Source: an uncultured Chloroflexia bacterium
GTDB taxonomy: Bacteria; Chloroflexota; Limnocylindria; Limnocylindrales; CSP1-4
NCBI GenBank assembly: GCA_963794525.1
Contig: CAWCEC010000003.1
Location: 124,003-188,002, forward strand
Reading direction: 5' to 3'
Length of the DNA: 64,000 bases
The notes under the pieces were generated by a model that was not told the DNA's origin, made no database searches, and worked only from the letters and a program-made list of their open reading frames with translations. This document shows positions 37,089 to 55,535 of this stretch, in pieces; the stretch's first letter is position 1; each line of letters opens with the position of its first letter. The translations under genes and the position numbers were made by a program.

Positions 37089-38197
37089 TGGGAGACCCGA
37101 TGACCGCGACACCGCCAGCCGTCCTGCGCGCCCACGCCGAGCAGGCCAGGGCCGACGAACTCGAGGCCCTCGCCCGTCTCGACGAGAAGCAGCGCCCGCC
37201 CGGGTGGCGTCTCTCGCCCTGGGCGGTCGTGACGTTCGTCATGGGCGGCAAGCTCAAAGACGGCACCAACGTCACGCCCAAATACATCGGGGACCGACGT
37301 CTGGTGGAGATCGCCGTGGCCACGCTCGCCACGGACCGCGCCTTGCTCCTCCTCGGCGTGCCCGGAACCGCCAAGAGCTGGCTGTCCGAACACCTGGCCG
37401 CCGCGATCAGCGGCGACTCGACGCTGCTCGTGCAGGGGACCGCCGGCACGGGCGAGGAGGCGATCCGCTTCGGCTGGAACTACGCGCGGCTTCTGGCCGA
37501 TGGCCCATCGCGGGCCGCTCTCGTCCCAAGCCCGGTGATGGTCGGCATGGCCGCGGGCAAACAGGTGCGCATCGAGGAGCTGACCAGGATCCCCGCGGAC
37601 GTCCAGGACGCCCTGATCACGATCCTGTCCGAGAAGTCCCTGCCGATCGCTGAGCTCGGCGAGGAGGTCCAGGCGGTCAATGGCTTCAATGTGATCGCCA
37701 CCGCGAACAACCGCGACAGAGGCGTCAACGAGCTCTCGTCCGCGCTACGACGGCGCTTCAACACCGTGGTGCTGCCGCTGCCGGCGTCGGTCGAGCAGGA
37801 GGTCGAGATCGTCCAGCAGCGGGTGGGGGAGATGGGTCGCGCGCTCGATCTCCCTGCCGAGCCGCCGGCGCTCGAGGAGATCCGCCGAATCGTCACGATC
37901 TTCCGCGAGCTTCGCTCGGGTCAGACGGAGGACGGCAAGAACAAGCTCAAGGTCCCGTCGGCGACGCTGTCGACAGCCGAGGCGATCGCGGTCGTCAACC
38001 AGGGTCTCTCGCTGGCGGCGCATTTCGGCGAGGGACGGCTCAAGCCACGCGACGTCGCCGCTGGCCTGACGGGCGCGATCATCCGCGATCCAGTCCAGGA
38101 CGCAGCCGTGTGGCGCGAGTACCTCGAGACCGTGATGAAGGAACGTGACGGCGGCTGGCGCGAGCTGTACAAGGCCTGCCGCGAGGAAGCCGAATAG
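37088..38197 (+). CDS. MoxR-like AAA+ ATPase
   Basis: Walker A GVPGTAKS, Walker B region and arginine finger context (IATANNRD, ALRRRF). The start overlaps the SWIM gene stop (TGATG). Confidence 0.85.
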   Translation: MGDPMTATPPAVLRAHAEQARADELEALARLDEKQRPPGWRLSPWAVVTFVMGGKLKDGTNVTPKYIGDRRLVEIAVATLATDRALLLLGVPGTAKSWLSEHLAAAISGDSTLLVQGTAGTGEEAIRFGWNYARLLADGPSRAALVPSPVMVGMAAGKQVRIEELTRIPADVQDALITILSEKSLPIAELGEEVQAVNGFNVIATANNRDRGVNELSSALRRRFNTVVLPLPASVEQEVEIVQQRVGEMGRALDLPAEPPALEEIRRIVTIFRELRSGQTEDGKNKLKVPSATLSTAEAIAVVNQGLSLAAHFGEGRLKPRDVAAGLTGAIIRDPVQDAAVWREYLETVMKERDGGWRELYKACREEAE

Positions 38198-38213
38198 GCG
38201 CGGCGGCGCAACC

Positions 38214-40502
38214 GTGACCACGATCCTCGGCATCCGCCACCACGGCCCGGGTTCGGCGCGGAGCGTGCTGGCCGAGCTCGAGCGGCTGCAACCGGACGCC
38301 CTGCTCGTCGAGGGACCGTCGGACGCGTCCGGCCTGATCGACCTGATCGCGGATCCGGGGATGCGGCCACCCGTCGCGCTCCTCATCTACGCGCCCGACG
38401 AACCGCGCGTCGCGACGTTCTACCCGATGGCCGAGTTCAGTCCGGAATGGGTGGCCCTGCGCTGGGCGCTGGAGCATGGCATCCCGGCACGGTTCATCGA
38501 TCTCGCCGCTGGCGCCCAGTTCGCCGTTGAGAAGGCCAGGTTCCAGCAACGGATGGCCGAGGCCGCGAAGGCCGCCGAAGCGACCGACGCCGACGACGGC
38601 GGGGCAGGGGAGGGAGAGGACGCCCCCGACACCCCGGACACCCCGGACGCCGAGGAGATCCGCCACGACCCACTCAACGAGCTCGCCCAAGCCGCTGGTG
38701 AGGAGGATGGAGAACGCTTCTGGGATCGCCTCGTCGAGTCGCGACGCGAACCCGGCGACCTGTTCGCCGCCGTCTCCGAAGCGATGACCGCCGTGCGCGA
38801 CGCACTGCCGGAAGGAGAGAGCCTGACCCTCCAGCGCGAGGCCGCGATGCGACGCGGCATCCGGCAAGCCGCCAAGGACGGCTTCGAAAACGTCGCCGTC
38901 GTATGCGGGGCGTGGCACGCGCCCGCCCTCGAGAAGCTGCCGCCCGCCGCCCAGGACGACCGGATCCTCCGCGCCCTGCCCAAGGCCATGAAGACCGCGG
39001 CGGCCTGGGTGCCCTGGACGTTCGACCGGTTGGCCGCCGAGTCGGGCTACGGCGCCGGTGTCGAGTCGCCGGGCTGGTACGCCCACCTGTGGTCGGGTAC
39101 GGAACCGCTCGCCGTCTCGTGGATGGCCAAAGTCGCCGCGCTCTTCCGCGAGGAGGGCCTCGATGCCTCCGCGGCGCACCTGGTCGAAGCCGTCCGCCTC
39201 GCCGAGACCCTCGCCGCGATGCGCGGCCGGGCCGTGCCGTCCCTGTCCGAGCTCAACGAGGCCGTGCGCGCGTGCCTCGCCATGGGTTCCGACCTGCCGC
39301 TCAAGCTCGTGCGCGACCGCCTGATCGTGGGCCAGGTCATGGGCGAGACACCGCCCGACGCCCCGGTGGCACCGCTCGCCGCCGACCTCGAGCAGCTGAC
39401 CCGCCGACTCCGCATGCGGCCGGAGCCCGGTGAGAAGACCATCGACCTGGACCTCCGGTCGGACACCGATCGCGCGCGGAGCCACCTCCTGCATCGACTC
39501 GGGATCCTCGGCGTCCACTGGGGCCATACGCAGGAGGTCCGCGGCAAGAGCGGCACGTTCCACGAGGTCTGGGCGCTCGCCTGGCAGCCCGAGTTCGTGA
39601 TCGACCTGGTCGCGGCCAGCCGCTTCGGCAACACGATCGAGGAAGCGGCGTCGAACTCGTCGATCGAAGCCGCCAACGCCGCCGACGAGCTGCCCGCGCT
39701 GACCTCGCTGATCGAGGCGGTGCTCCTCGCCGAGCTTCCGAAGGCGATCGAGCTCGTCGTCGACCGGATCGGCGATGTGGCGGCGGTCGGTGCGGACGTG
39801 CCCGCCCTCATGGACGCCCTCCCGCCGCTTGCCCGGGTCCTGCGCTACGGCAACGTCCGGGGCACGGACGCGACTGCCGTGTCCACGGTCGTCGACGGGC
39901 TCGTCGCCCGCGTCTGCATCGGGCTCTCGAGCGCGGCCGCCTCGCTCGACGACGATGCGGCCGCGACCTTCGCAAGCCAGATCGACGGGGTCCACGGCGC
40001 CATCGCCCTGCTCGACGATGCCGACGACCGAGCAGCCTGGCGCGAGTCCTTGCTTCGCCTGATCGACCAGGAGGGCCTCCATGGCCTTGTCGCCGGACGG
40101 GCGACCCGCCTCCTCCTCGACGAAGGCGTCATCGACAGCGCCGACGCGGCTCGCCGGATGCGCCTCGCCCTCTCGCCTGGCGCGGATCCGGCCGTCGGCG
40201 CGGGCTGGGTCGAAGGCTTCCTCCGTGACAGCGGCACGATCCTGCTCCACGACCAGGACCTGTTCGACACCATCGACCGCTGGGTCACGGATATGCCCCA
40301 GGACGCCTTCGACAACGTGCTGCCGCTGCTGCGCCGGACGATCGCGACCTTCAGCGTCCCGGAGCGGAGGTCGATCGGTGAGCGGATCCTGGCCGGTCGA
40401 CGCGATCGCGCCGCGGCGGCGTCGGCCGGGATAGACGAGGAACGGGCCGATCTCGTCATGCCGATCCTCGCCCGGATCCTGGGCGTCGAGGAGCGGCGAT
40501 GA
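38214..40502 (+). CDS. DUF5682-family protein (partner of MoxR/VWA; function unknown)
   Basis: GTG start after the AAA stop. About 760 aa with no recognised catalytic motif. Confidence 0.6.
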   Translation: MTTILGIRHHGPGSARSVLAELERLQPDALLVEGPSDASGLIDLIADPGMRPPVALLIYAPDEPRVATFYPMAEFSPEWVALRWALEHGIPARFIDLAAGAQFAVEKARFQQRMAEAAKAAEATDADDGGAGEGEDAPDTPDTPDAEEIRHDPLNELAQAAGEEDGERFWDRLVESRREPGDLFAAVSEAMTAVRDALPEGESLTLQREAAMRRGIRQAAKDGFENVAVVCGAWHAPALEKLPPAAQDDRILRALPKAMKTAAAWVPWTFDRLAAESGYGAGVESPGWYAHLWSGTEPLAVSWMAKVAALFREEGLDASAAHLVEAVRLAETLAAMRGRAVPSLSELNEAVRACLAMGSDLPLKLVRDRLIVGQVMGETPPDAPVAPLAADLEQLTRRLRMRPEPGEKTIDLDLRSDTDRARSHLLHRLGILGVHWGHTQEVRGKSGTFHEVWALAWQPEFVIDLVAASRFGNTIEEAASNSSIEAANAADELPALTSLIEAVLLAELPKAIELVVDRIGDVAAVGADVPALMDALPPLARVLRYGNVRGTDATAVSTVVDGLVARVCIGLSSAAASLDDDAAATFASQIDGVHGAIALLDDADDRAAWRESLLRLIDQEGLHGLVAGRATRLLLDEGVIDSADAARRMRLALSPGADPAVGAGWVEGFLRDSGTILLHDQDLFDTIDRWVTDMPQDAFDNVLPLLRRTIATFSVPERRSIGERILAGRRDRAAAASAGIDEERADLVMPILARILGVEERR

Positions 40503-41647
40503 GCGACGAACGGCTGCGACGCTGGCGCCTGGCGCTCGGCGGTGGGGACGCTGATGGGACCGGCCTCGCCCTGGCGGGGGACGACCTGAAGCGCGACCAG
40601 GCCCTCGAGCGGCTGTACGACGCGGAGCGGACCGCCGGCATGGGCGCATCGTCGCCCCAGGTCGTCCGCTGGCTCGGCGACATCCGGACGTATTTCCCAT
40701 CGTCGGTCGTGTCGGTGATGCAGCAGGACGCGCTCGAGCGGCTGAACCTGCGCCGGATGCTCCTGGAGCCAGAACTGCTGGCGACGATCCAGCCGGACCT
40801 CAACCTCGCCACCGAGCTGATCGCGTTGGGCTCGGTGATGCCCGCCGAGACACGGACCACGGCGCGGGAGATCGTCCGCGAGGTCGTCGAGGACGTCATG
40901 CGCCGGCTGGAGAGCCCGCTGCGCCAGGCCATCAGCGGTGCCCTCAACCGGGCGGCGGTCACCCGACGCCCGCGCCAGCGCGACATCGACTGGGACCGCA
41001 CGATCCGACGGAACCTGCGTCACTACCAGCCGGACCTCAAGACGGTCATCCCCGAGACGTTGCTGGGACACGCCCGTCGATCGAACGCCCTGCGCGACGT
41101 CGTGATCGCGGTCGACCAGTCGGGCTCGATGGCTGCCTCGGTCGTGTACTCGTCTGTGTTCGCCGCCGTCATGGCGTCCATCCGCTCGGTGGAGACGAAG
41201 CTCATCGTCTTCGACACCTCGGTCGTCGACCTGACCGACGTGCTGGACGATCCGGTCGAGGTCCTGTTCTCGACCCAACTCGGCGGCGGCACCGACATCA
41301 ACCGCGCGGTGGGCTACTGCCAGACCCTCGTCGCCCGACCGACGGATACGATCTTCGTGCTCATCAGCGACCTGTTCGAGGGCGGCGTCGAGCGGGAGCT
41401 GATCGCCCGGGTCTCGCAATTGCTGGCCTCGGGCGTGACCGTGATCGTGCTGCTGGCGCTGTCGGACAAGGGCACGCCGTCGTTCGACCACGAGCTCGCG
41501 GCGAAGCTGGCTGCCCTCGGTGCCCCCGCATTCGCCTGCACGCCGGACCACTTCCCGGGTCTCATGGCCGCCGCCATCGAGAAACGCGACGTCGGCCGCT
41601 GGGCAGCAGAGCAGGGGATCGCGCTGGAGCGCCCGAAGGACACGTGA
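40499..41647 (+). CDS. VWA-domain protein (MoxR partner)
   Basis: MIDAS motif VVIAVDQSGSM in a C-terminal VWA fold. Overlaps the DUF5682 gene by 4 bp. Confidence 0.8.
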   Translation: MSDERLRRWRLALGGGDADGTGLALAGDDLKRDQALERLYDAERTAGMGASSPQVVRWLGDIRTYFPSSVVSVMQQDALERLNLRRMLLEPELLATIQPDLNLATELIALGSVMPAETRTTAREIVREVVEDVMRRLESPLRQAISGALNRAAVTRRPRQRDIDWDRTIRRNLRHYQPDLKTVIPETLLGHARRSNALRDVVIAVDQSGSMAASVVYSSVFAAVMASIRSVETKLIVFDTSVVDLTDVLDDPVEVLFSTQLGGGTDINRAVGYCQTLVARPTDTIFVLISDLFEGGVERELIARVSQLLASGVTVIVLLALSDKGTPSFDHELAAKLAALGAPAFACTPDHFPGLMAAAIEKRDVGRWAAEQGIALERPKDT

Positions 41648-41683
41648 CGACCGAGCCAAGCCCGTAACGCTAGGAGACCAGCC

Positions 41684-42331
41684 ATGTCACTCGCGCGCGT
41701 CCAATTCTTCTCGATCTCGCTCGACGGTTTCGGCACCGGCGAAGGTCAGAGCCTTGAGGCACCGTTCGGCCACGCCGGCGAACGGCTGCACGAGTGGATG
41801 TTCGTCACTCGGTGGTGGAGCGACAGGGTCGGCGAGCCGGGCGGCAGCGGCGGCGTCGACGACGCCTTCTTGCGGCTGCACGATCCGGGGATCGGCGCCG
41901 AGATCATGGGTGCCGGGAAGTTCGGCCCACCCGGATGGCACGAAGACCCGGAGTGGAAGGGCTGGTGGGGTCCCAACCCGCCATTCCACACCCCGGTCTT
42001 CGTCCTCACCCACCACCCGCGCCCATCGATCGAGATGGAGGGCGGCACGACGTTCCACTTCATCGACGCTTCGCCCGCCGAAGCGCTCGAGAAGGCCCGT
42101 GAGGCTGCGGGCGGCCAGGACGTACGACTCGGGGGAGGGGCCACCATGATCCGCGAGTTCCTTGCTGCACGGCTCGTCGACCATATGCACGTCGCGGTGG
42201 TCCCGATCCTGCTGGGCCGGGGCGAACGCCTCTGGGACGGACTGGAGGGCCTCGAGAAGGACTACGTGATCGAGGCAACCTCGTCGCCCAGCGGCGTGAC
42301 GCACCTGACGTTCACGCGCGCGGCTGTCTGA
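41684..42331 (+). CDS. dihydrofolate-reductase-family protein (RibD C-terminal domain / YwjB-like)
   Basis: Motifs ISLDGFGTG, GGGATMIREFLAARLVDHMHVAVVPILLG and GRGERLW. A paralog of the N-terminal domain of the frameshifted cyclase fusion. Confidence 0.8.
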   Translation: MSLARVQFFSISLDGFGTGEGQSLEAPFGHAGERLHEWMFVTRWWSDRVGEPGGSGGVDDAFLRLHDPGIGAEIMGAGKFGPPGWHEDPEWKGWWGPNPPFHTPVFVLTHHPRPSIEMEGGTTFHFIDASPAEALEKAREAAGGQDVRLGGGATMIREFLAARLVDHMHVAVVPILLGRGERLWDGLEGLEKDYVIEATSSPSGVTHLTFTRAAV

Positions 42332-42356
42332 AAGGCCTCATCCGATCGGAGGCGGT

Positions 42357-42391
42357 CTCAACAGTCCTCGGCAGCGGCCGGCGGGATCTCG
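42357..42391 (+). repeat. left direct repeat (33/35 identical to 46721-46755): a decayed copy of the 3' end of the lipoprotein gene; left boundary of the kinase-LanC cassette
   Basis: Reverse-complement translation gives ...ADEIPPAAAEDC*, versus the intact lipoprotein C-terminus ...AEIPPAAAEGC*. Weaker similarity extends about 80 nt further. Confidence 0.55.
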
Positions 42392-42504
42392 TCGGCTGAA
42401 TCGACGCGGCTGCCTTCCTAGCCGATTGACATCAGTGTCACGATGAAGGCGTTGCGGTCGCTGTCCAGCGTTCACGGCCCGTCGGCCGAACGAGGGTGTT
42501 GGTC

Positions 42505-43002
42505 ATGAGACAGTTCAGAGTCCGCGATCTGATGATCAACGTGCTGCCCGAGGGCGGGCTGCCGCCGATCTGCAGGGTGGTCACCCTGCTGGACTGCGCA
42601 AACGACACCGAGATGGTGGCTGATTGTGGGATCAGCCTCTGCCGACCTATCAGTCGGTGCGTGCAGGTCACACTCCTGGCGGCCTGCGACGCCGACGGCG
42701 GCTCGAGCTGTGACGCCTGCGTCACCAAGGGCACCGTCACCACGGGCGGATGCAAGCCAGGCACGGGCGGCAAGATCGCCGCCGACGTGGGGCAGTACCT
42801 CGATGAGCTGGCGATCCTCAAGGCGGAGCTCACGGCGACGTTGAGCCGGGTCGAGGCGCGGGAGCGGGTGGTCGAAGAGAGCTTGGGGCCGCAGAGTCTG
42901 GACGAGGTTCAGCAACTCGAAGAGAGGCTCACCGGGGCGCTGGAGGAGTTGCGCGCGCGCCGAACCGAGATCGAGCGGACGACGCCCAAGTCGGCCGAGT
43001 AA
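42505..43002 (+). CDS. Cys-rich small protein with a C-terminal coiled coil (hypothetical)
   Basis: GAGGG 9 nt before the ATG. 10 Cys in residues 23-85 (CRVVTLLDCANDTEMVADCGISLCRPISRCVQVTLLAACDADGGSSCDACVTKGTVTTGGC), then a heptad-like helix. Confidence 0.5.
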   Translation: MRQFRVRDLMINVLPEGGLPPICRVVTLLDCANDTEMVADCGISLCRPISRCVQVTLLAACDADGGSSCDACVTKGTVTTGGCKPGTGGKIAADVGQYLDELAILKAELTATLSRVEARERVVEESLGPQSLDEVQQLEERLTGALEELRARRTEIERTTPKSAE

Positions 43003-43014
43003 TCGGCGCGTCGT

Positions 43015-44226
43015 TTGGCCGCCGGGACCAACGCGCCGCGAGGAGATCCGGACGACCTCCTCGAGGCGACCTATCGCGCTAACCCACGGTACGCGCTCGT
43101 CCAGTTCGACCGTCTTCCGCCCGCCGAACAGGCGGCCCTTTCTGGCCTCGAGCTGGACCCAGACTTCTATGGAGTCCTCGTGTCTCGGGGACAAACAAAC
43201 CAAGGCGTGAAAGCGGTGGGCAGGGATGCAGCCCTGCTGTTTCTCACGTTGGAAACGCCCGGGAAGCTTCCCAGGTATGTGCGGCGCCAGTTCGGGGACA
43301 ACTACCGGCAAGCGATCGCGGAGCTAGTGCTCGACGGCCTTCTCGAGATCGAGGCGGATGGGGCGTTCGTTTCCGGCCCCGCGGCGCATCGACGCATCAT
43401 CGGGGACGGCGAGGCGGCAGCAGGCGGGATCCTCGCCCGCCGGTCGATCGAGGCGCTCGAGTACGCCCAGGCCCTCGAAATCACGGACAGCCGCACGCTC
43501 TCTGCGCGCATCTACGGCTACGGGCGACATCCCTTGTCACCGCAGCTCCATCGGGATTTCCCGACGCCCGCGGCCGTCTCCGAGTATCTGGGTGTCCATG
43601 CGAGGGATGCCACCGGAGCGATTCTGGCCAAGTCGTGGTTCGCGGTACCGTCTTCTCAACCGGGTGATATGTGGCTCGCGTGGAACTCGCGCTCCATACG
43701 CCGCAGGCCGTCGGCGTCCGAGCCCACCTACAAGCTCTACGTCAGCCCACAACCCGAGTCCATGCGAGATGCATTCCAGACGACGGTCCAGGTCATCTCC
43801 AAGATGGCCGCCCCGTCGTTCAAGGTGGGTGGGGATGTGTACGGGCTGCTGCGGCCGGACAAGCTCGTCATCTATTTCGAGAACGTTGACGACCTCCAGC
43901 GAGCATCGAGTGCGCTGACCGACCGCCTCCACGGTTGTCTCCCACATGGCGTTCCGTTCACTGCAGAGATCGCCGGCGATGGCCTGTTGTCGTGGGGGAT
44001 CGACCCCCCACGAGACCTGTCGATGCCGGGGTGGCAACAATCGGGGAGCTGGCGCATCTGGGTCACGAATTGGCTGGCCGTTGCGCTGCTCTCGGCGAAG
44101 GCCGCTGCCACGGACGCGGTCGAGCCGTGGATGTTCGCACTAGATCGTCTTCGATTGGATGGCGTTGACACGACATCATGGATCCCGACGCCGACGATCT
44201 GGCGTGACGCCGTTTCGAGCGGCTAA
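43015..44226 (+). CDS. hypothetical 403-aa protein, candidate partner of the downstream kinase-LanC protein
   Basis: Long ORF with coding GC3 and tight spacing to both neighbours. No confidently recognised domain from sequence alone. Confidence 0.55.
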   Translation: MAAGTNAPRGDPDDLLEATYRANPRYALVQFDRLPPAEQAALSGLELDPDFYGVLVSRGQTNQGVKAVGRDAALLFLTLETPGKLPRYVRRQFGDNYRQAIAELVLDGLLEIEADGAFVSGPAAHRRIIGDGEAAAGGILARRSIEALEYAQALEITDSRTLSARIYGYGRHPLSPQLHRDFPTPAAVSEYLGVHARDATGAILAKSWFAVPSSQPGDMWLAWNSRSIRRRPSASEPTYKLYVSPQPESMRDAFQTTVQVISKMAAPSFKVGGDVYGLLRPDKLVIYFENVDDLQRASSALTDRLHGCLPHGVPFTAEIAGDGLLSWGIDPPRDLSMPGWQQSGSWRIWVTNWLAVALLSAKAAATDAVEPWMFALDRLRLDGVDTTSWIPTPTIWRDAVSSG

Positions 44227-46630
44227 GTTGAACGACCCTGCCATCACTGCGCCGTTGCTCCTGCCGACGGACGTCGTCCTGACGCCGGTTGCCGAGCTAC
44301 CCGAGAGACTCCGAGAGCACTTGGAACACGTGGACGGGGACTACGCGATCGCTCGGCGCCGGTCGAGGGCCCCGACGAGGATCGTCAATTCGCACGCGGC
44401 GAAGCTCCTCGACCAGTTTCGAACGGCGACCACCATCGTCCAGGCCGTCATCAATTTCGGGCTGGCAACCGGCGAGGATCCCGCGGAGGTCCTTGACGCC
44501 TCTTATCCGATGCTCAAGCGCCTGCTGGACTCGAATGTTCTCGTTCCCGCGGAGTCCGACGCAGCTGGCGAGATCATTCAGTCGTACGCCGTTGGCGAAC
44601 GCATCGCCGGGTTCACGGTCCTGCGCTGCCTGCACGTCCTCGAAGACACGGAGCTCTACCAGGTCAGGGGCCCGAACGGTCAAGAGGTCGCGCTCAAGAT
44701 CTCGCGGTCTGATCCCTCGGCCGATCTGCGGCGCATGTTCGGGCGGGAGGCCTCCGTCCTTCGCCACCTGGAGGGCAGCGTCAGCCCCGGATTCCTTCAA
44801 GAGGGCCCATTCGAAGATCGGCTGTTCCTCGCGATGGGGTGGTGCGCCGGGGTGCCGGCGAACACCGTCGCCGCAGAGGTTCGCGAGGTGGGCCGCGGCG
44901 ATGGGCCACGACAACTCCTCGACCTCGGTTGCACGATCCTGGAACAGTACGCCCGTCTCCATGCGCGGAACGTCATCCACTCGGACGTTCACCAGTCGAA
45001 CCTGCTCATCGCCGCCGACGGATCGATCAAGATCATCGACTTCGGCCTGGCGCGCCTGCCTGACGCAAGCGAGCCCTTGGACCACGCTCACCGCGGCGGT
45101 GTCGGCTTCTACTTCGAGCCCGAGTGTGCCTCCGCCTTGCGCGCCGGCCGCCAGCCCCCGGAATCCAGCTTCCTCGGCGAGCAATATGCACTCGCCGCGA
45201 TGCTGTATTTCCAGTTCACAGGCGTGCATCAGCTCGACTACTCGCTCGAGCGGGACGAGATGCTTCGCCAGATCTCCGAAGATCCGATGCTGCCGTTCTC
45301 GAAACGCGGAGTCAGCGCCTGGCCCGATGTCGAGCGGATCCTCGCGAGGGCGCTGAGCAAGGAACCACAGGCGCGCTTTCCCTCCGTTGCCGATTTCGCC
45401 CGGGCGCTCCGCGGCGTCGAGGTCACGGGCGACCAGGGCGTCGCCGCCGGGCGCGGCCGGACTCCGACCAAGGGCATGTCGCCGGCTGCAGAGGATGTCC
45501 TACGTGATGTGCTTGACCGTGTCCAGATTTCCGGTCCGCTGCAGCAGACCGGGCTCGCCAGGCCGACTGCCTCGGTCAACTATGGTGCGGCCGGCATCGC
45601 ATACGCGCTGTACCGCATCGCCCGCGTCCGGGGCGATCCCGCGCTCCTCGCCCTCTCGGACGTCTGGGCGAGCCGGTCGACTCGCGACCTCGACGATGAG
45701 GCCGCGTTCGTCAATACCGACCTTCAGATCGTCCCGGAGGTCGTTGGTGCGATCTCGCCGTACCACACCGCGAGCGGTGTCCATTGCGTCCAGGCACTCA
45801 TCGCTCATGCCATGGGCGATGCGGCCGCCCAGCAGGGAGAGATCGAGCACTTCATCGCGGCATCGGCAGCGCCGTGTCCGGACCTCGACCTTACCTTGGG
45901 CCGGTCGTCCTCGCTGCTGGCCGCGTCGCTGTTGAGGGACACGGCCCCCGACAACGACAAGCTACTTGGGTTCGGCAACGCGCGTTTGGCGGGCATCTGG
46001 GAGGAGGTCGGTGTATTCCCGCCGATCCGAGAATTCGCCGATATCTCCTACCTCGGGATCGCCCACGGATGGGCGGGGATCCTGTACGCGACGATGCGGT
46101 GGGCCGAGGCGTCAGGCATGCCGATGCCCACCTCGCTCCGTGAGCGCCTCGATCAGCTGGCCGAGCTCGCCGAGCACAAGGGCCGTGGCATTCGCTGGCC
46201 GGTGTACACCGAGACTCGATCGCACAAGCTCGAGCCGTACATGGCCGGCTGGTGTCACGGCAGCGCCGGCTACGTCCATCTCTGGATGCTTGCACACCGG
46301 GCGTTCAAGGACGAGAGGTACCTCGGCCTAGCCGAAAGCGCCGCCTGGAACGCGTGGGAGGAGCCCGACGCGAACGGCAGCCTCTGTTGTGGCCTGGCCG
46401 GGCGGGCGTATGCGCTGTTGAACCTCCATCGAGCCACGGGTGGGTCCGAATGGCTAGGCCGTGCCCGCCATCTCGCGAACAAGGCGGCCGGCGGCATCAG
46501 GAGTCGGGACGTGCCGGTGAATAGCCTGTACAAGGGCGAGGTGGGCATCGCTGTCTTGGCCGCCGACCTCTCGAAACCCGAATGGTCTTCGATGCCCTTC
46601 TTCGAAGCTGAGGGCTGGTCGACGACCTAA
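44159..46630 (+). CDS. Ser/Thr protein kinase fused to a C-terminal LanC-like (lanthionine synthetase C-like) cyclase domain
   Basis: Kinase motifs VALKI, HSDVHQSNLLI and IIDFGLAR. LanC motifs GIAHGWAGILYA, GWCHGSAGY and SLCCGLAGRAYAL. Start uncertain: the ATG at 44159 overlaps the upstream gene by 68 nt; alternatives are GTG 44204 and TTG 44228. Confidence 0.8.
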   Translation: MALTRHHGSRRRRSGVTPFRAAKLNDPAITAPLLLPTDVVLTPVAELPERLREHLEHVDGDYAIARRRSRAPTRIVNSHAAKLLDQFRTATTIVQAVINFGLATGEDPAEVLDASYPMLKRLLDSNVLVPAESDAAGEIIQSYAVGERIAGFTVLRCLHVLEDTELYQVRGPNGQEVALKISRSDPSADLRRMFGREASVLRHLEGSVSPGFLQEGPFEDRLFLAMGWCAGVPANTVAAEVREVGRGDGPRQLLDLGCTILEQYARLHARNVIHSDVHQSNLLIAADGSIKIIDFGLARLPDASEPLDHAHRGGVGFYFEPECASALRAGRQPPESSFLGEQYALAAMLYFQFTGVHQLDYSLERDEMLRQISEDPMLPFSKRGVSAWPDVERILARALSKEPQARFPSVADFARALRGVEVTGDQGVAAGRGRTPTKGMSPAAEDVLRDVLDRVQISGPLQQTGLARPTASVNYGAAGIAYALYRIARVRGDPALLALSDVWASRSTRDLDDEAAFVNTDLQIVPEVVGAISPYHTASGVHCVQALIAHAMGDAAAQQGEIEHFIAASAAPCPDLDLTLGRSSSLLAASLLRDTAPDNDKLLGFGNARLAGIWEEVGVFPPIREFADISYLGIAHGWAGILYATMRWAEASGMPMPTSLRERLDQLAELAEHKGRGIRWPVYTETRSHKLEPYMAGWCHGSAGYVHLWMLAHRAFKDERYLGLAESAAWNAWEEPDANGSLCCGLAGRAYALLNLHRATGGSEWLGRARHLANKAAGGIRSRDVPVNSLYKGEVGIAVLAADLSKPEWSSMPFFEAEGWSTT

Positions 46631-46720
46631 GAGGCGCTTCCTCGAGCAGCGCTAGTGCGACCTCGTCGGGATACCAAGATGGGCCTGGTGCGCTCGTGGC
46701 TCCCACAGGTCTCCGACCGC

Positions 46721-46755
46721 CTCAACAGCCCTCGGCGGCGGCCGGCGGGATCTCG
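46721..46755 (+). repeat. right direct repeat, overlapping the stop and last codons of the lipoprotein gene 46722-47423; right boundary of the kinase-LanC cassette
   Basis: CTCAACAGCCCTCGGCGGCGGCCGGCGGGATCTCG versus CTCAACAGTCCTCGGCAGCGGCCGGCGGGATCTCG. Confidence 0.55.
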
Positions 46756-47423
46756 GCGAGTGGATCGCCGATCACGATGCTGATCACGTCGCAGTCGGCG
46801 ATCACGACGGCACGGGCGTCGGCGACCGGCTCGCCGTTGACCTGCGCCGCGACGGGCTTGTCAGGCGCGCAGAGATCGGCGAAGCACGTTCCGTCGAGCT
46901 TGACGCCCCAAGAGTCGGCGAACTGCCCGAGCGTCAGCTCGATCGGTTCCTCCGCCTCGAGGTGGACCGTGCCCGAGCAGTCGTGCGTGTGGAGTCCGGC
47001 GATGCGGTGCCCATCGTTGTCGATGCCGATCCCCGCGGGGACGATCTGGGGTTCGCCGTCGACGAACACGCCCACGTACGTATGCACGTGGTGACTGAGC
47101 CACTCCACCGGGTCGACGGGTACGCCGGCGGTTGCGGCGAGGTCGACCGTATCGTTTGCGACCGGCCATCGCGCATACGCGCATTCCTCGCTGAAGAACT
47201 GGTCGGGCGCCGAGAAGACCCGGCCATCCGCGGTCTTGTATGTGCCGTCCGGCTGCTGGACCGCGTCCGCGAGCTCCGGTGGTAGACCCGCGGCAGTCGA
47301 GGGCGCTGCCTGGCTGGGACTGGGCGGCGTCGAGGCAGTGGTGCCGGTCCCGCACGCGATCGAGCCCAACGCGAGGACGAGTGCGGCGCCGACGACGAGG
47401 ACGCGCGACCGAAGAACCCTCAT
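46722..47423 (-). CDS. lipoprotein with His/Cys-rich motifs (possible metal binding)
   Basis: ATG at 47423 preceded by GGAGGG. Signal and lipobox LVLALGSIACG; motifs HHVHTY and HTHDC. Its last 35 nt are duplicated at 42357-42391. Confidence 0.6.
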   Translation of the reverse strand: MRVLRSRVLVVGAALVLALGSIACGTGTTASTPPSPSQAAPSTAAGLPPELADAVQQPDGTYKTADGRVFSAPDQFFSEECAYARWPVANDTVDLAATAGVPVDPVEWLSHHVHTYVGVFVDGEPQIVPAGIGIDNDGHRIAGLHTHDCSGTVHLEAEEPIELTLGQFADSWGVKLDGTCFADLCAPDKPVAAQVNGEPVADARAVVIADCDVISIVIGDPLAEIPPAAAEGC

Positions 47424-47464
47424 GCCACCCTCCGAAGACGAGTCGACCGCCATCCTAGCCGGCC

Positions 47465-48019
47465 TCAGTGCCGGGTTCGGAGCAACTCAAGCAATGCCGT
47501 CGTCGTTTGCCAGCTGCGGATCGTCATCGATCGATAGGCGGGCGTTCCGATGATCTTGCCCAGTCGGCTCTTCGTTCGTTGCGAGCTGAGACGCTGCGAG
47601 TAGATGACACCGTTCACCCGGCCAAACCTGATCGACGCCTTCTCTCGGATCGAAGACTGCGAGTGCTTCTGCAGGATCAAGGTCCATCAGGAAGATGGCA
47701 TCGCTGTGATATCTGCTCGGCTGCTCACCGAAGCGCTTGGGTCGTTCTTGACGACGCCTTCGAGCTGATCGCGAGACATGACCAGCACCTTGATGAGTTC
47801 AGCATCCAGCTTGAAGGCCTTCGGTAATGCCTCCTCGATCTGCGCCTTGATGGCAGCAGGTCGCTTCGCGGATTCCAGGAACACGTTGCCGCTGGCGATA
47901 TAGGTCGAGACCTTCGAATACCCCATGTCTTCCAGGAGGGTCCGCAGGTCCGCCATCGGCACCCGGTTCTTGCCGCCGACATTGATCCCTCGAAGAAGCA
48001 CCAGATAGGGTTGCGTCAT
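47465..48019 (-). pseudogene. DUF1697-family protein, lower-GC paralog with two frameshifts
   Basis: N-terminus MTQPYLVLLRGINVGGKNRVPMADL matches the intact copy at 49306-49866. The middle and C-terminal segments appear in the two other frames (ORFs 47487-47687 and 47465-47680). Confidence 0.6.
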
Positions 48020-49305: not shown

Positions 49306-49866
49306 TCAGCCGTCGGTGGCGGACGCCTCCATGCGCTCGAGCAGGGCCAGCGTCGTCGCCCAGCTGCGGATGGTCATCGACTTGTAGGCCGGCGTGCCGA
49401 CGATCTTGCTGAGGCGGCTCCTGGTCCGTTGCGCGCTGAGTCGCTGTGAATAGATCACGCCGGTTCCAGGCCATACCTCGTCAACGCCGGGCCGCGGGTC
49501 GAAGACCTTCATCGCGGTCGGCGCGTCGATCCCCATCAGGAAGACCGCGTCGCTGTGGTACGTCCCCGGTCGATCGCCGAAGCCCTTGGGCCGCTTCTGG
49601 ACGACGGCCCGAAGCTGGGCACGCGTCAGGACGAGGACCGCGATCAGCTCACTGTCGAGCTTGAACGTCTTGGGGAGAGCCGCTTCGAGCTCCCGCCGGA
49701 TCGTTGCTGCAGATCGGTCAGAGCTCAGGATCACGTTACCGCTGGCGATGTATGTGGACACCTTCGTATGGCCGTGGCTCTCGAGGAGCTCGCGCAGGGC
49801 CGCCATCGGGACCTTGTTCCGGCCGCCGACGTTGATGCCGCGCAGGAGCACGAGGTATCTGGTCAT
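49306..49866 (-). CDS. DUF1697-family protein
   Basis: Full-length 186 aa (MTRYLVLLRGINVGGRNKVPMAAL). Confidence 0.8.
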   Translation of the reverse strand: MTRYLVLLRGINVGGRNKVPMAALRELLESHGHTKVSTYIASGNVILSSDRSAATIRRELEAALPKTFKLDSELIAVLVLTRAQLRAVVQKRPKGFGDRPGTYHSDAVFLMGIDAPTAMKVFDPRPGVDEVWPGTGVIYSQRLSAQRTRSRLSKIVGTPAYKSMTIRSWATTLALLERMEASATDG

Positions 49867-50067
49867 CGTGATCGGCAGGATGCCACGGCCATCGATCCGC
49901 GGGATCAGCGCCCGAAGGCGACCTTGCCTGCCGTTGGGGTCTCATCGTTTCCCGAATCCGGGGAGCGCGGCGGCCTGTCCCATCCACAACGCAGGCCAGT
50001 GTCCACGGCGTCGATCGACGGAAGTCGCCATCATCGATCCCAAACGGAGGCTGCATGAGAGCAAAGG

Positions 50068-50436
50068 ATGCCCGACGACACACGAATTGATCGCTGGTTG
50101 TGCGCGGTGCGCCTCGTCAAGACCCGGCCCATCGCGACCCAGCTGTGCGATGGCGGGCACGTCCGCGTGAACGGCAACCCGGCGAAGCCGTCGACGAAGG
50201 TTCGGGCCGGCGACGTGGTGCACGCGCTCATCGCCGAACGTGAGCGCATCGTCGAGGTCGTGCGACCGATCGAAACGCGCGTCGGAGCGCCAGTCGCCGC
50301 CACGTGCTACGTTGACAACAGCCCACCGCCGGTTATCCGAGAGATCGCGCCCGGCATCAAGGCGGTCCGGGGGGAGGGCCGGCCGAGCAAGCGTCTCCGC
50401 CGCGAGCTCGAGCGGATGCGGCGGGCCGGAGGCTAG
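50068..50436 (+). CDS. S4-domain RNA-binding protein (Hsp15/HslR-like)
   Basis: S4 motif RIDRWLCAVRLVKTRPIATQLCDGGHVRVNG. Confidence 0.8.
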   Translation: MPDDTRIDRWLCAVRLVKTRPIATQLCDGGHVRVNGNPAKPSTKVRAGDVVHALIAERERIVEVVRPIETRVGAPVAATCYVDNSPPPVIREIAPGIKAVRGEGRPSKRLRRELERMRRAGG

Positions 50437-50848: not shown

Positions 50849-51076
50849 ATGCCCGATCGATATGGCCGTCTGAGGGTGCTGATCACCGCCGAGGGGATCG
50901 TCGACCTCGTCGACCGAGGCTACGAGGTCCGCATCCGTCGACATCACCCCATCCAAGGGTCCCCGCGTGAACTGATCGCCACGGATGCGTCCGTCGAGCG
51001 GTGGCTCGAGGAAACGTTTGGTGACCTTCCTCAGGAGCCGCCGACGAACGCCTCCCGCAGGACGAAGCCGCGATGA
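50849..51076 (+). CDS. hypothetical small protein, translationally coupled to the M14 peptidase gene
   Basis: Internal ATG chosen to avoid overlap with the divergent gene. Its stop overlaps the M14 start (ATGA). Confidence 0.3.
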   Translation: MPDRYGRLRVLITAEGIVDLVDRGYEVRIRRHHPIQGSPRELIATDASVERWLEETFGDLPQEPPTNASRRTKPR

Positions 51077-52615
51077 CGGCGGTCTACCGGACGGCCGATC
51101 AGATTGACGCCATCATGCTGCACCTGGCGAACCACTTCCCGTTCCTGTGCGAGCGACGGGAACTGCCCCATGGAACAGAAGGGGGTCGCTCGGTCTACGC
51201 GCTCAAAATCGCATCCGGCGGCGGCTCGGGTCGGCGGGCCTTCCTCGCGGTCGGCGGGATGCATGCCCGGGAGTACATGAACCCCGACGCGATCATCGAG
51301 CTCGCCGGCGACCTCGTGCGGGCGTACCTGCTCGGCCACGGCATCACGTACAAGGGCTCGACCGGCACCCAGGGCCGCACCTGGACGGCCCAGGACGTCA
51401 GGCTGATGGTCGAGACGCTCGACATCTGGTTCATCCCGACCGCCAATCCCGATGGCCGGGATTACGCGATGGATCACGACGACATGTGGCGCATGAACCG
51501 CCACGACAACGACAACTCGCCGTGCTTCGGCGTCGACGTCAACCGAAACTTCGATATCGCATGGGCCACCACCACATCGGCGACGTCGTGCACCGTCTGT
51601 GATCCGAAATCAGGTTTACTGCGGCCCTCGCGCCTTCTCCGAGCCGGAAGCTCGCAACGTCCGGACCTTCGTGGAGACGTTCAATATCAACGTCTTCGTG
51701 GACGTGCACTCTTTTAAGGAGTGGATCATGTATCCGTGGGGCCACGCGCCCCTCCAGACCACGGACCCGGCCCAGAACTTCAAGACCCTCGCCTCCGGAA
51801 GCTGCGCCTGGTTGAACCCGCCGAAGTACAAGGAGTACATCCCGTCGGCGGATCTGCGGCGCTACCAGACGGTCGCCCAGAGGGTCGTCAACTCGGTCCG
51901 GATGGTCCGAGGACGAAACTACACGCCGAATCCCATCAACTCGATCTACCCGACGGGCGCCTCGGGGACGAGCTCCGACTACGTCTACAGCCAGCATATG
52001 CGGGACCCGGCACTCCACAAGACCTATGCCTTCGCCTTCGAGTGTGGTCAGAAAACAGGCAACGACCAGGAGGACTTCCACCCTTCGACTGAACCCCGGC
52101 TGGCCGACACCAAGAAGGACACGAAGGCGGCCATCCTGGCCCTCATCGAGCAGACGGTCTGCGCGATCGAGTTCATCGGCGTGTCGCTCTTTGACAACGT
52201 TCGAGATGTCCAGACGATCCGATCGCTGCGGGACACGACGCTCGCGACAACCGATGCCGGCCAGGGCTGGATCGAGCTCTTCGACCGCGTCCAGCGACCG
52301 GTCCTCGCCGCCGTCCTCGAGGACGAGGAGCTGCAGCGGGAGGCGGCCGAGCTCCTCGGGCGAGCAACCGAGCTGATCGATGGCGACTCCAGCAAGCTGA
52401 CCGCCGACGACGTCGCCCGCGCGAAGAGCTTCGTCCGACGCGTGTCCCGGCGCATTGAGGACCCTGAAGTCAAACGCGGCCTGGCCCAGGTCCAGAAGCG
52501 GCTTGCCGCGGCCCAGGGGCGGACAGTCTCCAGGGTCGTGGCGACACTCATGCGTGAGGCGCCGACCATTCCTTCGACCAAACGGAAGCGACGCCCGGCG
52601 AAGTCCGACCGATGA
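51073..52615 (+). pseudogene. M14-family zinc carboxypeptidase with a C-terminal extension; single frameshift near 51600-51615
   Basis: HxxE zinc motif GGMHAREYMNPD and VDVNRNF in frame 1. It continues in another frame from CGPRAFSEPEARNVRTFVETFNINVFVDVHSF. Confidence 0.7.
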
Positions 52616-52827: not shown

Positions 52828-53079
52828 TCAATGCTCGTCCCGCTGCTTGCGGACGATCGACGCCCAGTCAGGCATCGGCCCGCCCGAGAACGCCTGCTTC
52901 CAGTGGTCCGGCATCGGCACCGAGGGCCTGGATCGTCGCAGCACTTCCGCGCGGTCGGCTTCTTCAAGAACGTGCTGCGTCCCGACCTTGCGGGCGCGCA
53001 GCTTGCCTTCTCGGATCCACCGACGGATCGTCGCGGGATTGCGGCCAGCGCGGCGAGCGGCTTCGGACACTGTCAGCAT
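52828..53079 (-). CDS. helix-turn-helix DNA-binding protein (excisionase / MerR-superfamily type)
   Basis: 83 aa. HTH at the N-terminus: LTVSEAARRAGRNPATIRRWIREGKLRARKVG. Confidence 0.6.
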   Translation of the reverse strand: MLTVSEAARRAGRNPATIRRWIREGKLRARKVGTQHVLEEADRAEVLRRSRPSVPMPDHWKQAFSGGPMPDWASIVRKQRDEH

Positions 53080-54045: not shown

Positions 54046-54046
54046 G

Positions 54047-55012: not shown

Positions 55013-55082
55013 CAGCCGATGATGCCACGGGCCTCGGTCAGCACGGGAGGGAAAGGAGCAGGGTTCCCTACGCGCTCGCGCG

Positions 55083-55535
55083 ATGGGCGGACAAAGAGAA
55101 ACGCCCGAAGGAACCTGGTCCGTAGCCATCAATACCGATGCAGAACACCGGTACCGCTGCTTTCGGTCCACGCCCCTTCAGGCACGACTACCTTATCGGT
55201 TGCGAAGCGGGTCTGGGAACCCGTTTATCCACGAGTTTCGAGATTTCAGGCCCGAATGTCGCCCTATCTATCCACCGTCCGTCCACCATGGCGCGGGACG
55301 GGTGTCAAGGGGGTGCACACGAAAAGGCCCGACGAGGGCGCACACGAAAACGCCCGAAGGAACTCGATCACTAGTTGCCCCGACCAATGTAAACACCAGT
55401 CAGATCACTAGATGTTCGTGCCCCTTCGAGCAACGCGAACGATACGGTGCGCCCCATCACCGCGGCAAGGTGGTTATCCACGAGATTCATCGCAAACACA
55501 TCGTTTTCGAAGGCGTTGTCCACACGCTTCCCACA
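55083..55535. other. low-GC (about 50-55%) non-coding block with internal repeats; candidate structured ncRNA or integration remnant
   Basis: No long ORF. Repeated units include GAAAACGCCCGAAGGAAC (55096 and 55345), TTATCCACGAG-TT (55228 and 55465), a tandem CACACGAAAAGGCCCGACGAGG / CACACGAAAACGCCCGAAGG, and GATCACTAG twice. No tmRNA, RNase P or tRNA signature found by eye. Confidence 0.3.

Follow-up and report, generated by a model that had tools for sequence, protein, structure and literature searches.

A three-gene cassette of 4.2 kb, resembling genes for lanthionine synthetase, lies in the junction between two convergent genes of an uncultured Chloroflexia bacterium, a RibD_C gene and a lipoprotein gene, and is foreign DNA acquired horizontally. 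In the window (the whole stretch of DNA that was analysed, 64,000 nt), the cassette stands between two copies of the 3′ end of the lipoprotein gene. The left copy, 50 nt long, is best read as the orphaned 3′ end of a lipoprotein allele, left as a scar of homology-anchored/illegitimate recombination at a rearrangement hotspot and not as an attachment site; the probability of this reading is put at about 0.5.

The repeated lipoprotein gene end and its empty sites

Regarding the repeats themselves, the core at 42357-42391 is identical to 46721-46755 at 33 of 35 positions, the same count as in the preliminary description, and the ungapped match reaches 50 nt (42357-42406 versus 46721-46770; 43/50, 86%). 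The pair is real and non-random, and its local alignment score of 65 lies far above chance, as given by 3000 real segments drawn from the same window (mean 21.9, sd 4.6, maximum 42). A weaker similarity running about 100 nt further into the gene had also been described, but this does not hold: the gapped local alignment ends at 50 nt. The DNA from 42434 onward is cassette DNA, which is also present in the cassette copy L005 at a place without a lipoprotein gene.

The lipoprotein gene (46722..47423, minus strand), recognised by its open reading frame and the lipobox LGSIAC, encodes 233 aa if read from the Met that precedes the signal peptide, or 243 aa from an alternative start at 47453. Its orthologues are present on nine related contigs, and no Pfam domain was found among 48 homologues. 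The right repeat (46721..46770, minus strand) continues into the gene body and is the functional 3′ end including the stop codon, with 94-96% identity to the tails of L013, L009, L003 and L001. The earlier identification of the right copy as the real C-terminus and stop is backed by the reading frame, the lipobox and the C-terminus ...EIPPAAAEGC*, which is kept in 8/8 orthologues.

On the left, the RibD_C gene (41684..42331, plus strand; dihydrofolate-reductase family, Pfam RibD_C, E 1e-11) shows 91-94% nucleotide identity to L013, L012, L011, L003 and L009. A 25-nt spacer (42332..42356) extends from its stop codon to the left repeat, and the first ~15 nt of this spacer are similar to the sequence downstream of RibD_C in L012. 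The left repeat (42357..42406, minus strand) corresponds to the last 15 codons and the stop codon of a lipoprotein allele and is read as its non-functional end. It translates on the minus strand as ...VDSADEIPPAAAEDC* and terminates at the same stop codon as the right copy; the translation given previously, ...IVTLMSIG*EGSRVDSADEIPPAAAEDC*, was reproduced exactly. Homology with L003, L009 and L013 is continuous from RibD_C through the spacer into the left repeat, whose first 35 nt are identical to L013 at 34 positions, and homology to every lipoprotein orthologue stops at 42406. A junction filler of 27 nt (42407..42433), for which no match was found in any of the loci compared, separates the end of lipoprotein homology from the start of cassette homology.

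All nine relatives carry a single copy of the repeat. L003, L009 and L013, all genomes of related Chloroflexia, have the convergent lipoprotein gene as the immediate neighbour of RibD_C, and in them the left flank (41672-42406) and the right flank (46715/46721-47462) overlap on that single 50-nt copy. These are the empty sites with one intact lipoprotein 3′ end that had been predicted, and two copies without cargo, the pattern named as speaking for a simple duplication, were absent from all nine. No other cargo was found at the lipoprotein-end site in these relatives. The gene downstream of the lipoprotein stop codon varies, being VWA_CoxE in L001 and L010, RibD_C in L003, L009 and L013, LtrA in L008, FMN_bind_2 in L002 and another gene in L007; the stop codon is a recurrent breakpoint and a rearrangement hotspot. 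On sequence comparison, the two repeat copies look like two alleles, because their outer flanks point to different relatives: the last 10 nt of the left spacer, CGGAGGCGGT, agree at 8/10 positions with the sequence downstream of the lipoprotein gene in L003 and L009, whereas they match the right-hand flank of the window at only 4/10. The right-hand flank, within the 14 nt (46707..46720) directly downstream of the working stop codon, is of the type found in the closest relatives, AGGTCTCCGACCGC matching the L001 spacer GGCCCTCTGACCGC at 9/10 positions adjoining the stop codon and being similar also to AGGTCTCCGC of L008 and GACCG of L013. The lipoprotein tree agrees with this, separating the window and L001 (92% bootstrap) from L002, L003 and L009 (94%). 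The flank argument concerns only 10-14 nt, and in anchored 20-nt alignments P is about 0.02-0.04.

The cassette and its predicted functions

Cassette homology extends from 42434 to 46626. L004-L006 carry the same trio at 85-91% nucleotide identity in three unrelated contexts, the shared sequence being bounded at 42434/42491 and 46626; a 56%-identical trio is present in another genome, and the lyase-synthetase pair is found on a conjugative Bacillus plasmid, while no viral contigs carrying the lyase family were found. The GC content of 66.0% falls in the 2nd percentile of the window, and the tetranucleotide distance is the largest in it. The cassette is accessory and mobile. At L004-L006, flanking direct or inverted repeats (best scores 20-24), lipoprotein-tail-like sequence and termini shared across contexts were sought and not found; the gene-end copy is therefore not a property of the cassette. 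The repeat match and the empty sites uphold the description of a discrete insertion bounded by two lipoprotein 3′ ends. The accompanying statement that the three genes fit the interval exactly holds in that they nearly fill it, but the cassette homology leaves out 27 nt at the left end and about 90 nt at the right.

The upstream non-coding part (42434..42504, plus strand) is common to L005 from 42434 and to L004 and L006 from 42491. Gene 1 (42505..43002, plus strand) encodes a Cys-rich protein of 165 aa, the presumed substrate, which in alignment with L004, L006 and L015 shows an invariant N-terminus (MxQFxVRxLMINVLPE), a variable middle rich in Cys, Ser and Thr, and a conserved C-terminal coiled coil; it gave no significant Pfam match (one sub-threshold K-box) and no match in NCBIfam or PHROG. 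Gene 2 (43015..44226, plus strand) encodes a protein of 403 aa assigned by fold as a stand-alone HopA1/LxmY-like phospho-Ser/Thr lyase. Sequence-family searches gave no match for this protein, whose family comprises 1458 clusters at 50% identity. Its AlphaFold2 model (pLDDT 92.3, pTM 0.90) retrieved in Foldseek HopA1 (4rsx, E 2e-8) and LxmY (9dk3_B, E 2e-7), as well as SpvC/OspF and the lyase domains of CuvL, ThurKC and SalKC. Gene 3 (44228..46630, plus strand) starts at a TTG codon one base past the gene 2 stop and encodes a kinase-LanC fusion (Pfam Pkinase and LANC_like) that is 100% identical to P0001 over 800 aa; the NCBIfam profile of class IV LanL covers positions 230-802 only, at 163 bits versus a cut-off of 650.

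From these folds and domains, we infer that the three genes encode a lanthionine synthetase in split form together with a Cys-rich partner. The kinase would phosphorylate Ser/Thr, the lyase would remove the phosphate to give dehydro-residues, and thioethers would arise as the LanC domain adds Cys thiols, the presumed substrate being the co-encoded 165-aa protein. The cargo shares kinase and LanC domains with class IV LanL, but its lyase is a separate protein and not an N-terminal domain. Like LxmY of class V (LxmK/LxmY/LxmX), the lyase is stand-alone and HopA1-like, but class V has no LanC domain, and here one is joined to the kinase. By sequence, the closest solved relatives of this LanC domain are LanCL1 and LanCL2. 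Instead of a short precursor peptide, the putative substrate is a protein of 165 aa with a coiled-coil tail.

Origin of the second gene end

In the preferred explanation, donor DNA from a related genome would have carried the cassette beside an intact lipoprotein 3′ end, and host recombination would have integrated it with lipoprotein-gene homology as the right anchor. The left joining would have been illegitimate, 50 nt inside the end of the resident gene, which amounts to homology-facilitated illegitimate recombination (HFIR). An equivalent route would be a single crossover, by homology, with a circle that had looped out and bore the junction. Under either route, the resident end would have been displaced, not replaced; selection would have retained the gene-attached copy while the other decayed, and a dedicated recombinase would not have been involved. 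Both the route and the polarity of donor and recipient are what we infer from the features described above. Several observations count against the scar. The left junction lacks a clean microhomology, the 27-nt filler and the ~76-nt right spacer are unexplained, and the differences between the copies are concentrated (5/7 within the last 15 nt of the repeat), which simple neutral decay does not predict. A site-specific recombinase encoded elsewhere in the genome, beyond the 64-kb window, may also have acted in trans. Furthermore, a VWA gene directly adjoins the lipoprotein gene in L001 and L010, and therefore RibD_C may have come in with the cassette.

This last point leads to a composite import, in which an ancestral VWA-lipoprotein arrangement, as in L001 and L010, received, in one step or two, a 5.06-kb block (41648 to ~46706) in its 14-nt spacer. 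The block would consist of RibD_C and a 50-nt lipoprotein tail, from a donor in which RibD_C abuts the lipoprotein gene, plus the cassette, and the left repeat would be a passenger fragment instead of a displaced resident end. Homology with L001, the closest relative (88-91% nucleotide identity across the region), breaks off at the VWA stop codon (41647) and is found again from 46711, and that with L010 behaves likewise (41641 and 46718). The entire 14-nt L001 spacer is recognisable beside the right copy, CGACCG stands at both block ends (41648-53 and 46714-19), and RibD_C is extremely conserved in many contexts (7840 clusters at E < 1e-60; separate contexts in L011 and L012). However, the adjacency of RibD_C and the lipoprotein gene occurs on both branches of the lipoprotein tree (L013; L003/L009) and may therefore be ancestral. 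The L001 spacer past the VWA stop starts with GGCCCTC, resembling the motif downstream of RibD_C, and the VWA gene of L010 ends in GTCTGA, as RibD_C does, hinting at stop-to-stop RibD_C deletions in those lineages. A composite import also needs two illegitimate ends, or a donor already having the junction of tail and cassette, and is regarded as the next most probable reading, though unlikely.

The mechanism proposed in the preliminary description, a site-specific element that targets the lipoprotein 3′ end, brings a replacement copy and leaves attL/attR, its integrase being lost or acting in trans, is improbable. It accounts for direct repeats of a gene's 3′ end on both sides of the cargo with the lipoprotein gene intact, for the single-copy empty sites, and for the different sequences outside the two copies, as expected if one flank is element-borne. 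Nevertheless, between 23 and 61 kb of the window (at least 15 kb around the cassette), the flanking DNA, which had been proposed as a place to look for recombinase remnants, yielded no integrase, excisionase pair, transposase or tRNA. Between the repeats, where the absence of an integrase was confirmed, lie the three genes and only about 190 nt of non-coding DNA; with less than 200 nt, there is no room for a recombinase remnant. Moreover, the three other cassette copies have no repeats, tail-like end or common termini, the site carries no other cargo in the nine relatives, and the flank of the right copy matches the native flank of L001, L008 and L013 and is not element-specific DNA. The sole match in the integrase/excisionase search was an HTH_17 protein of 83 aa, encoded about 5.4 kb past the lipoprotein gene.

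The right-hand spacer (46631..46706), of uncertain origin and absent from all other cassette copies, bears on a further explanation. It may derive from the RibD_C 3′ end as a decayed copy; a similarity to the VWA tail was rejected. A local duplication would have doubled ~158 nt (42249-42406) over both convergent gene ends, with the cassette arriving between them at a later time or together with the duplication in one replication-based event (template switching), and each gene retaining one intact end. Consistent with this, the spacer is weakly similar to, and collinear with, the RibD_C 3′ end (42249-42331; global alignment P = 0.004), with further dot-plot diagonals (offsets 4376, 4382 and 4390) next to the main one at 4364. 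The local alignment by itself is not significant (P = 0.07), however, and the RibD_C-side remnant (~60% identity, gapped) is far more decayed than the lipoprotein side (86%). The spacers differ and each resembles a different relative, and a cargo-free duplication occurs in no relative, making this course of events very unlikely. Least credible is the absence of any historical scar, whether through chance similarity, a conserved functional element of both genes (terminator or small RNA) or metagenome mis-assembly. In its favour are the GC-rich, low-complexity DNA, the origin of the sequence from a metagenome-assembled genome and the frameshift-type errors in L003; yet the repeat score is far beyond the null, no terminator-like site was found, shuffled sequence folds just as well (z-scores 0.08 to -0.88), and an Rfam search gave no match. 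A mis-join at the repeat would not yield the junction of tail, 27 nt and cassette, and the cassette and the lipoprotein are both recorded on one 703-kb contig.

Relation to known modes of integration

Integrase-mediated islands and prophages insert in the 3′ end of tRNA, tmRNA or protein genes, which they restore, giving attL and attR. The present locus resembles them in its repeats derived from the target 3′ end, its intact target gene and its single-copy empty sites. It differs in having neither integrase nor excisionase, in a cargo of only three biosynthetic genes, other copies of which lack the repeat, in a site that other elements do not reuse, and in repeats that are 86% identical with no identifiable identical core beyond 18 nt. 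In Campbell-type integration, circular DNA such as a suicide plasmid enters by one homologous crossover, and the homologous segment is doubled as direct repeats flanking the inserted DNA, as seen here. Campbell copies can be hybrids of donor and recipient, and different outer flanks would therefore be explained; the circular intermediate with the junction that this route requires is hypothetical here. A length of 50 nt is close to the lower limit for RecA-dependent exchange.

Orphaned 3′ regions in the T6SS effector-immunity arrays of Vibrio cholerae and in Rhs/CDI loci have been attributed to HFIR (PMC5361080), the primary work being that of de Vries & Wackernagel 2002 and Prudhomme et al. 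2002, as cited in PMC5361080. HFIR is documented in naturally transformable bacteria, whereas the host here is an uncultured Chloroflexia bacterium in which the mechanism would operate by analogy, and this difference counts against the scar. As in those arrays, incoming DNA would be anchored by homology in a conserved gene, the displaced resident 3′ end would survive next to the new cargo as a fragment without function, no dedicated recombinase would take part, and the locus is a recurrent hotspot. Unlike the arrays, the locus would record a single event, the displaced piece is only 50 nt without an orphan immunity gene, and the anchor is a lipoprotein gene unrelated to the cargo. The event is one of ordinary genome evolution, which is well documented at this locus.

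Repeat pair and gene order at the lipoprotein locus

The direct repeats that bound the cassette, a trio of genes for a 165-aa Cys-rich protein, a 403-aa protein (p403) and a kinase-LanC fusion, were reproduced as 35-nt sequences at 42357-42391 and 46721-46755 with 33 of 35 positions identical, and the ungapped match reaches 50 nt (42357-42406 versus 46721-46770; 43/50, 86%). The local alignment score of the pair is 65, compared with a mean of 21.9, a standard deviation of 4.6 and a maximum of 42 for a null of 3000 real window segments, and the match is not due to chance. As the preliminary description had held, the right copy forms the functional 3' end of the lipoprotein gene (46722-47423, minus strand), whose product carries a signal peptide and a lipobox and whose C-terminus, ...EIPPAAAEGC before the stop codon, is kept in every orthologue, and the left copy translates on the minus strand to ...VDSADEIPPAAAEDC and a stop codon, with an in-frame stop before it. 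The weaker similarity said to continue for about 100 nt deeper into the lipoprotein gene was absent, the gapped alignment ending at 50 nt; the DNA from 42434 on is cassette DNA common to L005, a site without a lipoprotein gene. No second lipoprotein paralogue or pseudogene was detected in the window by tblastn, an exact look-up of the window lipoprotein protein found no record, and a metagenome scan for it yielded a single short contig. There were no terminator-like sites at the repeats, folding z-scores lay between 0.08 and -0.88, and Rfam gave no match; thus, the conservation of the left copy is not explained by a terminator, a structured RNA or an Rfam family.

The lipoprotein gene is convergent with the genes to its left. 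VWA_CoxE (40499-41647), the final gene of the bpMoxR/DUF5682/SWIM operon, is followed by RibD_C (41684-42331) and by the left copy, a 50-nt orphan adjoining RibD_C. The Cys-rich protein gene (42505-43002), the p403 gene (43015-44226) and the gene for the 800-aa kinase-LanC fusion (44228-46630, TTG start) come next, and a spacer of about 90 nt separates the last of these from the lipoprotein gene. Non-coding DNA between the repeats amounts to only ~190 nt, so that a recombinase remnant could not fit. All contexts retain the outer synteny (window up to 33482 and 50023-50430), and the neighbour downstream of the lipoprotein stop codon varies among relatives: VWA in L001, the closest relative, and L010; RibD_C in the cassette-free sites L003, L009 and L013; LtrA in L008; FMN_bind_2 in L002; and another gene in L007. 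Judged from these gene orders, the lipoprotein stop codon is a recurrent breakpoint.

Other features were seen in the neighbouring genes. The four-gene MoxR/VWA operon (34263-41647; SWIM/DUF5691, bpMoxR(AAA_5), DUF5682 and VWA_CoxE) is present in L001 and L010 and is missing at this position in L003 and L009 despite the kept outer synteny, forming a variable block; a gene for a PIN-domain (toxin-like) protein at 33770-34192 lies past the synteny boundary at 33482, ahead of this operon. The RibD_C protein matches 7840 protein clusters at E < 1e-60, with 81-93% amino acid identity among the matches listed, which include Methylomirabilota and Limnocylindrales metagenome-assembled genomes, and its contexts differ widely (L003, L013 and the separate RibD_C contexts L011 and L012); this extreme conservation across many contexts suggests either frequent transfer or very strong constraint. 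Two DUF1697 paralogues occur in the window, a combination of types seen only here among the contigs compared. The one adjoining the lipoprotein gene (47486-48019) is of the L001/L010 type and is likely a pseudogene, since homology resumes past an in-frame stop at 47687-47689; the other (49306-49866) belongs to the type of L002, L003, L008, L009 and L012, with 92% nucleotide identity to L002. The Peptidase_M14 gene (51073-52615) is broken by a frameshift into overlapping ORFs at 51073-51717 (profile positions 2-144) and 51599-52615 (148-265), meaning that either the gene is a pseudogene or the long reads contain a sequencing error; L003 carries similar frameshifts in RibD_C and in the lipoprotein gene.

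The cassette as an insertion

Relatives of the locus were collected by a lipoprotein protein scan with one genome per species, which gave three uncultured Chloroflexia metagenome-assembled genomes, and six further lipoprotein contexts were obtained by protein searches and contig look-ups. The empty sites predicted in the preliminary description are present in L003, L009 and L013, where the window flanks 41672-42406 (RibD_C, the spacer and the 50-nt lipoprotein tail) and 46715/46721-47462 align to one unbroken stretch and overlap on a single 50-nt copy. Two copies without cargo, which would have pointed to a simple local duplication, were absent, nine of nine relatives carrying exactly one tail copy. 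The same three-gene unit occurs at other loci, with nucleotide identities of 90.8% (L004), 88.0% (L006) and 85.6% (L005); the homology with these copies is bounded on the left at 42434/42491 and on the right at 46626, at the stop codon of the last gene, and the cassette neighbours are unrelated in each. A further genome contains a 56%-identical trio (181, 399 and 797 aa), and the lyase-synthetase pair was found on a conjugative Bacillus paramycoides plasmid, annotated there as a hypothetical protein and a "LanC family protein". The GC content of the cassette is 66.0%, against 68.6 ± 1.4% for the window (2nd percentile), and its tetranucleotide distance is the largest among 4.2-kb stretches of the window. 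Based on the empty sites, the single copy in relatives, the same trio elsewhere and the outlying composition, the earlier interpretation of a discrete insertion between copies of the lipoprotein 3' end stands; the integrative-element mechanism that came with it is not supported.

Origin of the left copy

The left copy is most likely a recombination scar. The donor would have been DNA of a related genome in which the cassette lay beside an intact lipoprotein end. Recombination inside the lipoprotein gene, serving as a homology anchor, would have joined the right side, and illegitimate joining 50 nt within the end of the resident gene would have joined the left side, so that the resident lipoprotein end was pushed aside and remained beside its old neighbour RibD_C; a circular intermediate integrated by a single homologous crossover would give an identical product. 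One trait of homology-facilitated illegitimate recombination is visible here: the right copy continues into the lipoprotein gene, and the 50 nt of the left copy stand orphaned beside the resident RibD_C. This route would also require a host, here an uncultured Chloroflexia bacterium represented by a metagenome-assembled genome, that takes up foreign linear DNA and recombines it. At the left junction, a 27-nt filler lies between the tail and the cassette. The 8-mer TCACGATG occurs in the gene directly past the 50-nt repeat (46772-46779) and at the cassette left end (42438-42445, also in L005), and it may represent microhomology, though it lies off the junction itself. The same explanation has been given for orphaned 3' regions of T6SS and Rhs loci (PMC5361080), the likeness being a displaced resident gene end. 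As a finding on genome structure, the locus is an ordinary case, well documented here, of a familiar type of event.

The sequences just outside the two copies provide further information. Next to the stop codon, only 4 of 10 bases outside the left and right copies agree; the left outer flank CGGAGGCGGT matches the L003 and L009 flank at 8 of 10 positions, and the right outer flank CTCCGACCGC matches the whole L001 spacer at 9 of 10 and also resembles L008 and L013. Target-site or in-place duplication would leave identical flanks, whereas two joined alleles would not, and the unlike flanks are thus suggestive of two alleles joined by recombination rather than of duplication in place; this argument is only suggestive because the anchored 20-nt flank tests involve few bases (P ~0.02-0.04). 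In the lipoprotein tree, the window groups with L001 (92% bootstrap), and L002, L003 and L009 stand apart (94%). The 50-nt repeat itself carries no lineage signal, and sliding-window identity gave no clear recombination breakpoint in the lipoprotein and RibD_C genes.

Other histories were weighed against the recombination scar. A serious though rather unlikely variant is a joint arrival of RibD_C, tail and cassette in the spacer between the VWA and lipoprotein genes: the homology with L001 and L010 breaks off at 41647, the VWA stop codon, and restarts at 46711/46718, as such a composite import would leave it, but RibD_C adjoins the lipoprotein gene on both branches of the tree, the start of the L001 spacer resembles the motif downstream of RibD_C, and the L010 VWA gene ends in GTCTGA like RibD_C, the last two features hinting at RibD_C loss in the L001 and L010 lineages. 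Local duplication of a stretch of about 158 nt that takes in both convergent gene ends is very unlikely. The right spacer (46631-46706) may, by its sequence, have decayed from a copy of the 3' end of RibD_C (42249-42331), given a global alignment P of 0.004 and three collinear dot-plot diagonals of weak similarity; however, local alignment gave P = 0.07, and decay would have gone much further in the RibD_C remnant than in the lipoprotein one. The reading of the same spacer as a decayed 3' end of VWA was rejected (score 15, below the null mean), and alignments to L001 and L010 (P ~0.03) were attributed to chance.

A site-specific integrative element with attL/attR at the lipoprotein 3' end, as the preliminary description proposed, is quite unlikely. 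It would account for a 50-nt repeat (86%) derived from the target 3' end on both sides of the cargo, for the intact lipoprotein C-terminus, for the empty sites and for the single copy in every relative; yet the genes of 23-61 kb include no integrase, transposase or tyrosine or serine recombinase by Pfam, NCBIfam and PHROGs, and no tRNA gene that might serve as a target was found in the window. The cassettes of L004, L005 and L006 have different neighbours and lack tail-like sequence and flanking repeats, whether direct or inverted (best scores of 20-24, equal to background), and the sequence common to the cassette copies is limited to the genes themselves, without shared termini, indicating that the gene-end replacement copy is not part of the cassette. 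No different cargo occupies the lipoprotein-end site in relatives, and no phage contig with a relative of the lyase family was found in IMG/VR. A variant in which the 35-50 nt tail is a reusable attachment sequence, the trio moving as an integrase-less module by gene-end loop-out and loop-in or by a remote recombinase and restoring the target end, is highly improbable; if true, it would be a new route for a small RiPP-like cluster between genomes. Insertion of a transposon or IS element was rejected on the basis of the lack of a transposase among the genes of 23-61 kb, an end-to-end inverted match at background (score 21) and a duplication of 50 nt as opposed to a 2-15 bp target-site duplication. 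An integron gene cassette was likewise rejected: there was no integrase in the genes of 23-61 kb, folding of 46625-46725 and 46690-46800 (spacer and repeat regions) was no better than that of shuffled sequence in the search for attC, and the four cassette copies are followed by unrelated sequences. The sole mobile-element-type hint near the locus is an 83-aa HTH_17/excisionase-like protein (52828-53079), ~5.4 kb past the lipoprotein gene; a 570-aa protein without a family is encoded nearby (53699-55411), and the 53.2-55.6 kb stretch is kept in L012 at 77%.

The cargo and its significance

p403 has no sequence match in Pfam, NCBIfam or the PDB, and its family comprises about 1458 clusters at 50% identity without a Pfam or NCBIfam model. 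AlphaFold2 gave a confident model only with a 48-sequence alignment (pLDDT 92.3, pTM 0.90; single-sequence pLDDT 36.7). The model matches HopA1 (4rsx, E 2e-8) and LxmY from the lexapeptide dehydratase of class V (9dk3_B, E 2e-7); further matches are phosphothreonine lyases of the SpvC/OspF type and, within class III synthetases, the lyase domains. By its predicted fold, p403 is a stand-alone HopA1/LxmY/SpvC-like phospho-Ser/Thr lyase, with invariant residues K240, Y242, K270, R280 and D282. One base separates the end of its gene from the start of the kinase-LanC gene. The 800-aa kinase-LanC protein scores 163 bits against the NCBIfam class IV LanL model (cut-off 650) through its kinase and cyclase parts only; coverage extends over 230-802 of 851 profile positions, the N-terminal lyase part being missing, and, of the solved structures, LanCL1 and LanCL2 are nearest in sequence to the LanC domain. 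The 165-181-aa cassette protein, for which no family is known in Pfam or NCBIfam, has copies in the window (42505-43002), L004 (4171-4668), L006 (1314-1811) and L015, a locus with a related protein (6215-6760). Its N-terminus (MxQFxVRxLMINVLPE) is invariant and leader-like, its Cys/Ser/Thr-rich middle varies in length, and its C-terminal coiled coil is conserved; a role as a protein-sized lanthionine substrate is possible.

By its lyase fold, its kinase-LanC match and its small Cys-rich protein, the trio is a lanthionine-synthetase module in split form, whose putative substrate is unusually long. In class IV LanL, the lyase, kinase and LanC parts reside in one polypeptide, whereas the window trio keeps the lyase separate and its kinase-LanC protein falls below the cut-off. 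Class V LxmK/LxmY has a stand-alone HopA1-like lyase with a kinase, as does the window trio, known from its genes and a predicted fold; the class V kinase is stand-alone and there is no LanC-type cyclase, whereas the window kinase is fused to a LANC_like domain. The trio is like both systems and fits neither definition, and no description of a stand-alone lyase with a kinase-LanC protein was found in a literature search. A role as an anti-phage defence system was rejected, as the PADLOC matches concern the generic kinase domain only.

Taken with its empty sites, the locus shows a small biosynthetic cassette entering a chromosome without mobile-element machinery, and direct repeats derived from a gene end are not, by themselves, proof of an element driven by an integrase. 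In an annotation, the left copy of 50 nt should be entered as a gene fragment and the cassette as accessory DNA. The cargo is the more interesting by-product: the lyase, the kinase-LanC protein and the 165-aa coiled-coil protein form a widespread and apparently undescribed module that merits separate study.
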